From: a virus
Lineage: Duplodnaviria; Heunggongvirae; Uroviricota; Caudoviricetes
Reading direction: 5' to 3' (one strand)
Virus record (IMG/VR): IMGVR_UViG_2693429524_000011
DNA: 8,999 nt
The notes beneath the pieces were generated by a model, which was given only the letters and a program-made list of their open reading frames with translations, was not told the origin of the DNA and did not search any database. Position 1 is the stretch's first letter. The number at the start of each line of letters is the position of its first letter. This document shows, piece by piece, positions 6,730 to 6,950 of this stretch. The position numbers were made by a program, and so were the translations under genes.

Positions 6730-6950
6730 ACGGACAAAAACAGAGAAAGGAAACGACAGAGGCTAAAAAGCCCGTTTTCAGCACCTGTCGTTTCCTTTCT
6801 TTTCAGGGGGTGTTTTAAATAAAAACATTAGGTTACGGCGAAGAAGAACGGAAACGCCTTAAACCGGAAAATTTTCATAAATAGCGAAAACCCGCGCGCC
6901 TTCCGCCCCGTAACCTGTCGGATCGCCGGAAAGGACCCTAGAAATGATAA
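6730..6950. promoter_or_regulatory. cos: cos site: cosB R elements, cosN nicking region and the probable cosQ region
   Basis: Three copies of the CGTTTCC/GGAAACG core are present in the lambda R3-R2-R1 arrangement: plus-strand ggaaacg at 6749-6755 and 6850-6856, and cgtttcc at 6789-6795. The cosN-like sequence, read in phage orientation, is gttacgGGGCGGAAGGCGcgcgggttttcgctatttatgaaaattttccgg, with the 12-nt cohesive-end equivalent at plus 6897-6908. Sequence distal to cosN (6910-6950) resembles the lambda right-end/cosQ region. Confidence 0.85.

Follow-up and report, generated by a model that had tools for sequence, protein, structure and literature searches.

Lambda-like phages commonly differ from one another at bp 7–12 of cosN (Feiss et al., 2015; PMC4669245). 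N15 and phiD326 differ from lambda at positions 9 and 12, and Gifsy-1 differs at positions 8, 9 and 11 (PMC4669245); LLS and mEp213 have been reported with GGGCGGCGCGCT (PMC12315714). Selection holds cosQ (a highly conserved 7-bp element), the CG pairs beside both nicks, which are also highly conserved, and the left half of cosN, whereas bp 7–12 are exempt (PMC4669245). Many right-half mutations have a minimal phenotype, whereas the symmetric left-half ones are severe, an asymmetry that reflects the anchoring of TerL by cosB-bound TerS (PMC4669245).

N15, whose cosN we checked directly in the sequence (GGGCGGCGTCCG), provides the precedent for a right-half variant that lambda TerL cuts with normal yield: the lambda and N15-hybrid terminases gave equal yields on cosN-lambda and cosN-N15 (PMC4669245). 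The cosB of N15 itself is simple, with only one R3, and its TerL shares 65% identity with that of lambda; for the lambda/N15 pair, segregation of heteroduplex ends after hybrid packaging has been demonstrated, and a 2-base mismatch between the ends costs ~4-fold in yield (PMC4669245). The view taken in an earlier note on the DNA described here, that a divergent cosN beside a lambda-like terminase is unusual, is at odds with these published results, in which bp 7–12 differences are frequent, unselected and without effect on yield in the cosN-lambda/cosN-N15 comparison.

Architecture of the cos site

The window, that is, the whole stretch of 8,999 nucleotides analyzed here, contains a single cosN copy, which in phage orientation (the minus strand of the window) reads CG/GGGCGGAAGGCG/CG, with the 12-mer at 6908..6897. 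The flanking sequences are gttaCG (left) and CGcgggttttcgc (right), and the wider context is ...GGGTCCTTTCCGGCGATCCGACAGGTTACG / GGGCGGAAGGCG / CGCGGGTTTTCGCTATTTATG... The corresponding sequence of the lambda record PV340536.1 is GTTACG GGGCGGCGACCT CGCGGGTTTTCGC. The alignment confirms that the cosN of the window differs from that of lambda between the flanks given in the earlier note, which had also given the lambda sequence correctly; its count of about five mismatches holds, but these are five of the last six positions (bp 7, 8, 9, 10 and 12) rather than five of eight internal ones. The left half, GGGCGG, is that of lambda, and the right half is AAGGCG in the window versus CGACCT in lambda. 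The comparison was also run for phage 21 (M81255) and phi80 (JX871397), and GGGCGGCGACCT was found in both, in agreement with the statement that the classical lambdoid phages share their 12-nt ends. With 5 of 12 positions different from this 12-mer, the window cos lies outside the group of identical ends formed by lambda, 21 and phi80.

The alignment of the window with lambda is free of gaps from cosQ through the start of Nu1. Over cos, Nu1 and A, 68 of the 2696 aligned bases are mismatched (1.9% in Nu1 and A, 6.8% in the non-coding cos flanks), and there are no differences from bp 13 to bp 70. At a background rate of 2.3%, the probability of at least five mismatches in six positions is ~4e-8; the changes in cosN are thus strongly clustered and non-random. 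Assembly error is ruled out, since the same 21-mer occurs in 78 IMG/VR contigs and the same 48-mer in 154 complete Escherichia coli records. An origin of the five changes in a single event was considered for one case, plain inversion of the lambda segment, which by our own reading of the sequence fails to yield the variant.

The features of the locus are listed in Table 1. Of 228 related loci, 224 have the heptamer GGGTCCT, which we take to be cosQ, at most 45 bp to the left of cosN. The window shows the sequence hallmarks of a lambda-like cos site: a 12-bp interval between the CG pairs, GGGCGG, cosQ, a complex cosB and adjacent terS and terL genes. The order R3 – I1 – R2 (inverted) – R1, in which IHF would bind at I1, is present with the spacings from cosN seen in lambda (coordinates of R3 taken from PMC9026076), and the Nu1 start codon is 190 bp from base 1 of cosN, exactly as in the aligned lambda record. 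Lambda cos therefore shares with the window the heptamer at -30, the CG flanks, GGGCGG, the 12-bp spacing, R3/R2/R1 and the distance to the Nu1 start, and it differs in the five positions of the right half and in that the window copy lies in a deleted prophage. By homology, the top-strand nick would fall between 6909 and 6908 and the bottom-strand nick between 6897 and 6896. The predicted stability of the overhang duplex is -17.8 kcal/mol for the window allele versus -18.2 kcal/mol for lambda, each with 10 of 12 GC, and the 16-bp site has 8 two-fold symmetric positions in the window versus 10 in lambda.

Table 1. Positions of the cos subsites, the terminase genes and the deletion junction in the window.
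Feature	Position	Strand	Remarks
cosQ-like heptamer GGGTCCT	6932..6938	-	-30..-24 from cosN, position as in lambda
Conserved CG pair outside the predicted top-strand nick	6909..6910	-	same as lambda
cosN cohesive-end sequence GGGCGGAAGGCG	6897..6908	-	aligned to lambda, PhiR46_1 and PhiR70_1; allele census
Conserved CG pair outside the predicted bottom-strand nick	6895..6896	-	same as lambda
cosB R3 AGGCGTTTCCGTTCTT	6844..6859	-	bp 50–65; identical to lambda
cosB R2, 16-bp R sequence inverted relative to R1	6785..6800	-	inverted repeat; identical to lambda
cosB R1 CTGTCGTTTCCTTTCT	6744..6759	-	inverted-repeat partner of R2; lambda alignment
Nu1 (TerS), 181 aa	6174..6719	-	180/181 identical to lambda Nu1
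A (TerL), 641 aa, intact	4274..6199	-	635/641 identical to lambda gpA
Deletion junction, stop of A and first ~20 nt of W fused to the interior of gpL	4258..4259		PhiR46_1 alignment

N15 resembles the window in that its changes, including T12>G, are confined to the right half, with the left half and the CG flanks conserved. It has two changes relative to lambda, whereas the window has five, and the window combines its variant with lambda's own cosB and terminase, in contrast to N15. The other alleles compared, those of mEp213/LLS, Gifsy-1 and PhiR70_1 (GGGCGGAGACCT) and the IMG/VR alleles GGGCGTCAGGCG and GGGCGGCAGGCG, have the same architecture as the window.

Two short repeats were observed around the site. 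A 17-nt imperfect inverted repeat (82%; window 6900–6916 and 6830–6846), with an exact 9-nt core (AGGTTACGG / CCGTAACCT), pairs the left nick flank and the left half of cosN with bp +63..+79 just past R3; lambda lacks it, and it arises from SNPs at +71, +73 and +78, positions that differ within the closest variant/canonical pairs examined. A functional role for this repeat was set aside, its 9-mer core being expected ~0.13 times by chance according to our estimate. The hexamer AAGGCG at 6897–6902 recurs at 6855–6860, at the start of the R3 region (TTTAAGGCGTTTCC, bp 49–54). This second copy was dropped as a source of the allele, the chance of a nearby 6-mer recurrence being estimated at ~9%; the match is probably a coincidence, because the allele is also found with a 21-type cosB, which does not have that R3.

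The prophage in the window

The chicken E. coli strain Z1323CEC0019 has a prophage to which the window is 99.8% identical. Positions 4258–6959 align to 19794–22496 of PhiR46_1 and positions 615–4259 to 33754–37430, so that, compared with PhiR46_1, ~11.26 kb are missing: W, B, C/Nu3, D, E, FI, FII, Z, U, V, G, T, H, M and the 5' part of L. The deletion (junction region 4258–4273) leaves the terminase genes directly beside the tail-tip genes K, I and J; gpL is annotated as incomplete, and IS1203 interrupts the lysis region of the prophage. Due to the loss of the head and tail genes from W through part of L, the prophage is defective and could not form particles alone. Its own cosN copy is consequently under no selection, and this copy is a relic.

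According to the coordinate mapping to L001, the end of the window (8930–8999) appears to lie inside the IS1203 copy (24026–25239 of L001) by which the lysis genes are truncated; of two more IS1203 copies, one interrupts uspF at the opposite edge of the prophage and one is found further along L001. The closest genome, NZ_CP148401.1, aligned in two pieces and spans 9095 bp versus the 8999 bp of the window, and this 96-bp difference in length maps upstream of position 2754, within gpJ (region 1–2753). A plus-strand ORF of 483 aa (312–1763), antisense inside gpJ, is probably spurious.

Distribution and genetic backgrounds of the allele

In a flank-anchored sample of IMG/VR, the 120 matches listed comprised 112 canonical sites, 5 with the allele of the window and 3 others. 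A scan of IMG/VR with the allele-specific 21-mer revealed 78 stretches; since the later scans were allele-specific, IMG/VR counts other than those of the flank-anchored sample do not give frequencies. Of the records for complete E. coli genomes, 154 matched the allele-containing 48-mer at ≥99%, which over 48 bases means exact identity, 34 more matched at 95–99%, and 4445 records had a match, so that the share of the allele is ~3.5% of the complete E. coli records with a lambda-like cos match. The carriers include ETEC H10407, E24377A and several plasmid records of ~46 kb. Among deposited phages, the allele is present in 2 of the 91 records with a match, PhiR46_1 and YDC107_1. A scan of genome contigs with the 21-mer gave 9 matches, of which only Escherichia sp. 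E1V33 is relevant; the other 8, from unrelated and mostly high-GC organisms, are probably due to chance. The allele is thus a recurrent minority form, at roughly 3–4% in both the E. coli genomes and the IMG/VR sample, and not the common form in lambdoid phages, a possibility that the earlier note had left room for. The contig IMGVR_UViG_3300045988_113976 (56,122 bp) has two variant cosN copies (L148 and L156) and could be a tandem or concatemeric assembly or carry two prophages.

The two deposited phages, PhiR46_1 (PV340565.1) and YDC107_1 (CP025712.1), have the same cosN allele, lambda-type cosB and Nu1/A as the window, although their A differs from that of the window at 5 residues and their left flank is GGCAGGCTACG versus GACAGGTTACG in the window; the A of PhiR46_1 differs from lambda gpA at 3 residues. 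Unlike the window, both are N15-like telomere phage-plasmids whose genomes are complete, with lambda-like head genes, head and tail modules in full and a protelomerase/telL replicon. Their deposition as complete phage genomes with a named host suggests that they are infectious; a search of the literature for PhiR phages yielded no paper. Both are mosaics in which an N15-type telomere, protelomerase and primase replicon is joined to a lambda-type cos, Nu1 and A, in place of the simple cosB and the 65%-identical TerL of N15.

The natural alleles form a graded series of related right halves, which includes AGACCT (PhiR70_1), CGACCG, CAGACG, CAGGCG and AAGGCT, as well as GGGCGTCAGGCG; the existence of this series makes a stepwise origin plausible. 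With the same right flank, IMG/VR contains GGGCGTCAGGCG in 15 stretches, GGGCGGCAGGCG in 4, GGGCGGCAGACG in 3 and GGGCGGGAGCGT in 2, together with single cases of AAGGCT, AAGCGT, CTGACG and TCAGACG. Among the IMG/VR alleles with this flank and a base other than A at bp 9, the window allele is the most frequent (78 of 107 stretches). In 139 unique haplotypes, bp 1–5 were invariant and bp 11 was C in 136; bp 6 also varied (G/T/A), and natural variation is concentrated at bp 6–12.

The allele was found on 30 left-flank and 32 right-flank haplotypes and with three classes of cosB: lambda-type (58 loci), 21-type (18 loci) and a third class (4 loci). The canonical allele likewise occurs with both lambda-type and 21-type cosB. 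For 22 of 59 variant loci with lambda-type terminases, an identical Nu1 protein is also found beside the canonical allele, and the same applies to the identical 641-aa A protein for 3 of 40 variant loci. The mean distance of A is 6.3 aa between the alleles versus 6.2 and 5.5 aa within them, and the majority residue differs between the allele groups at no site in A and at one site in Nu1. Because the distances are equal, identical A and Nu1 proteins stand beside both alleles and A shows no majority difference, the nuclease does not co-vary with the site.

In the loci with at least 7.3 kb of downstream sequence, to which the comparison of head genes was limited, an uninterrupted Nu1-A-W-B-C-D-E order was found in 14 of 20 variant and 11 of 20 canonical loci; intact sets of head genes are as frequent downstream of the variant as downstream of the canonical allele. 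Apart from IS66, which is inserted in its capsid gene, the H10407 prophage is complete.

The variant and canonical loci that match most closely have 11 mismatches in 1200 flanking bases but 5 in 6 in cosN; in one such pair, the flanking mismatches closest to the site lie at -4 and +53. This contrast indicates that the allele is uncoupled from its flanks. The uncoupling probably reflects frequent recombination beside the chromosome ends, and hybrid packaging followed by segregation of the annealed heteroduplex ends, the route demonstrated for lambda and N15, may also contribute.

Interpretation of the variant cosN

We consider it likely, with a probability of about 0.85, that the window cos is a lambda-type prophage site with a natural minority cosN allele, which is near-neutral, tolerated and compatible with ordinary lambda packaging. 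In the proposed mechanism, Nu1 would, together with IHF, bind R3, R2 and R1 of cosB and position gpA, which would make its nicks at the conserved CG/G and G/CG boundaries, with 12 bp between those on the two strands, the predicted products being 5' overhangs of GGGCGGAAGGCG and its complement. The sequence of the right half (bp 7–12) would have little weight, because the nuclease would be held in place by cosB-bound TerS, and the overhangs would stay self-complementary, since both chromosome ends would be cut from the same type of duplex. Given this right-half tolerance, the self-compatible overhangs and the unchanged predicted duplex stability, the allele would behave as a near-neutral polymorphism spread over many cos backgrounds. 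Homology and the presence of the allele in complete phages suggest that nicking occurs at the homologous positions, and the exact allele is presumably cut efficiently. The two-fold symmetry drops from 10 to 8 of the 16 positions, but symmetry of the right half is dispensable according to published genetics.

The allele of the window fits the published bp 7–12 rule exactly, and for this reason it carries little mechanistic weight; it is a further, fairly frequent entry in the known series of right-half variants. Several points count against the preferred reading: five simultaneous changes exceed the documented cases compared (two in N15, two in mEp213/LLS and three in Gifsy-1), they reduce the symmetry of the site, and the copy in the window is itself unselected. 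No experiment on the exact allele was found, and a literature search with the exact 12-mer and its complement matched only unrelated plant and Streptomyces papers; GGGCGGAAGGCG and its complement appear in no phage paper of the searchable literature, which did not extend to the principal survey of cosN variation in nature (Vahanian et al., 2017, Virology 509:140).

The state of the prophage could itself suggest decay, in which five inactivating mutations accumulated in a dead element and left a cosN that does not work: the prophage is defective, ~11.26 kb of head and tail genes are gone, IS1203 sits in the lysis region, and this copy is unselected. However, 78 viral contigs and 154 E. coli records carry the identical allele, with many different flank haplotypes; it is also present in complete phage genomes, and in 14 of 20 loci the head module downstream of it is intact. 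In addition, decay would not spare every constrained cos subsite or an intact Nu1 and A at 99% identity to lambda. Decay has been largely refuted by the allele census, and we regard its probability as close to negligible. Another reading, proposed in the earlier note, is a distinct cos specificity group, i.e., a variant cosN matched to a co-adapted nuclease and cut poorly or not at all by canonical lambda-type terminases. The size of the change (5/12), the apparent dimorphism of the two main alleles with few intermediates, and the partial linkage of the SNPs +71, +97 and +137 with the allele would agree with such a group. Yet identical A and Nu1 proteins stand beside both alleles, no residue of A tracks the allele, lambda-type and 21-type cosB each occur with both, and the occurrence of the variant with three cosB classes contradicts a distinct group. 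The A proteins of the window and of PhiR46_1 are, moreover, only 6 and 3 residues away from lambda gpA, and the literature gives lambda TerL no cosN specificity for right-half changes (PMC4669245). A separate packaging-specificity class would have an R sequence of its own in cosB and a TerS recognition helix to match, whereas here cosB and Nu1 are lambda's own. A specificity group is therefore very improbable. From the earlier interpretation, the difference from lambda, the ends shared by lambda, 21 and phi80, and the minority status remain, while the unusualness of the site and the specificity group do not.

Somewhat less improbable, but still unlikely, is selected end-incompatibility, according to which the right half would be kept as a small number of separate "end types" (chiefly CGACCT and AAGGCG) on a mobile patch of <60–290 bp, possibly moved by heteroduplex segregation. 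Such types would be maintained since mismatches at 5 of 12 overhang bases would reduce end-joining and the formation of hybrid chromosomes with lambda-like prophages in the same host or with cos-bearing satellites. The small size of the patch and its lack of linkage to the flanks (11/1200 versus 5/6 differences) are in line with this scenario, many carrier E. coli genomes have 2–4 lambda-like cos sites, and a 2-base mismatch already has its yield cost (PMC4669245). On the other hand, direct evidence of selection is absent, intermediate alleles exist, the published view is that bp 7–12 are simply unselected (PMC4669245), and the same pattern is explained by neutral drift, acting at the only positions free of constraint, together with frequent recombination near chromosome ends.

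For a near-neutral allele that is tolerated in ordinary lambda packaging, a penalty is expected for hybrid chromosomes only, because 5 of the 12 bases would be mismatched between an end of one allele and an end of the other; judging from the cost of a 2-base mismatch, a chromosome with one cos type at its start and the other at its end should cyclize poorly. Poor annealing between the ends of the two alleles would be relevant to cosmid and helper packaging and to cos-ligation maps. Tools for terminus prediction and annotation that search for GGGCGGCGACCT will miss roughly 3–4% of the lambda-like cos sites of E. coli. Overall, the census provides a quantified case in which a very small polymorphic patch at the end of a phage chromosome is uncoupled from near-identical flanks.
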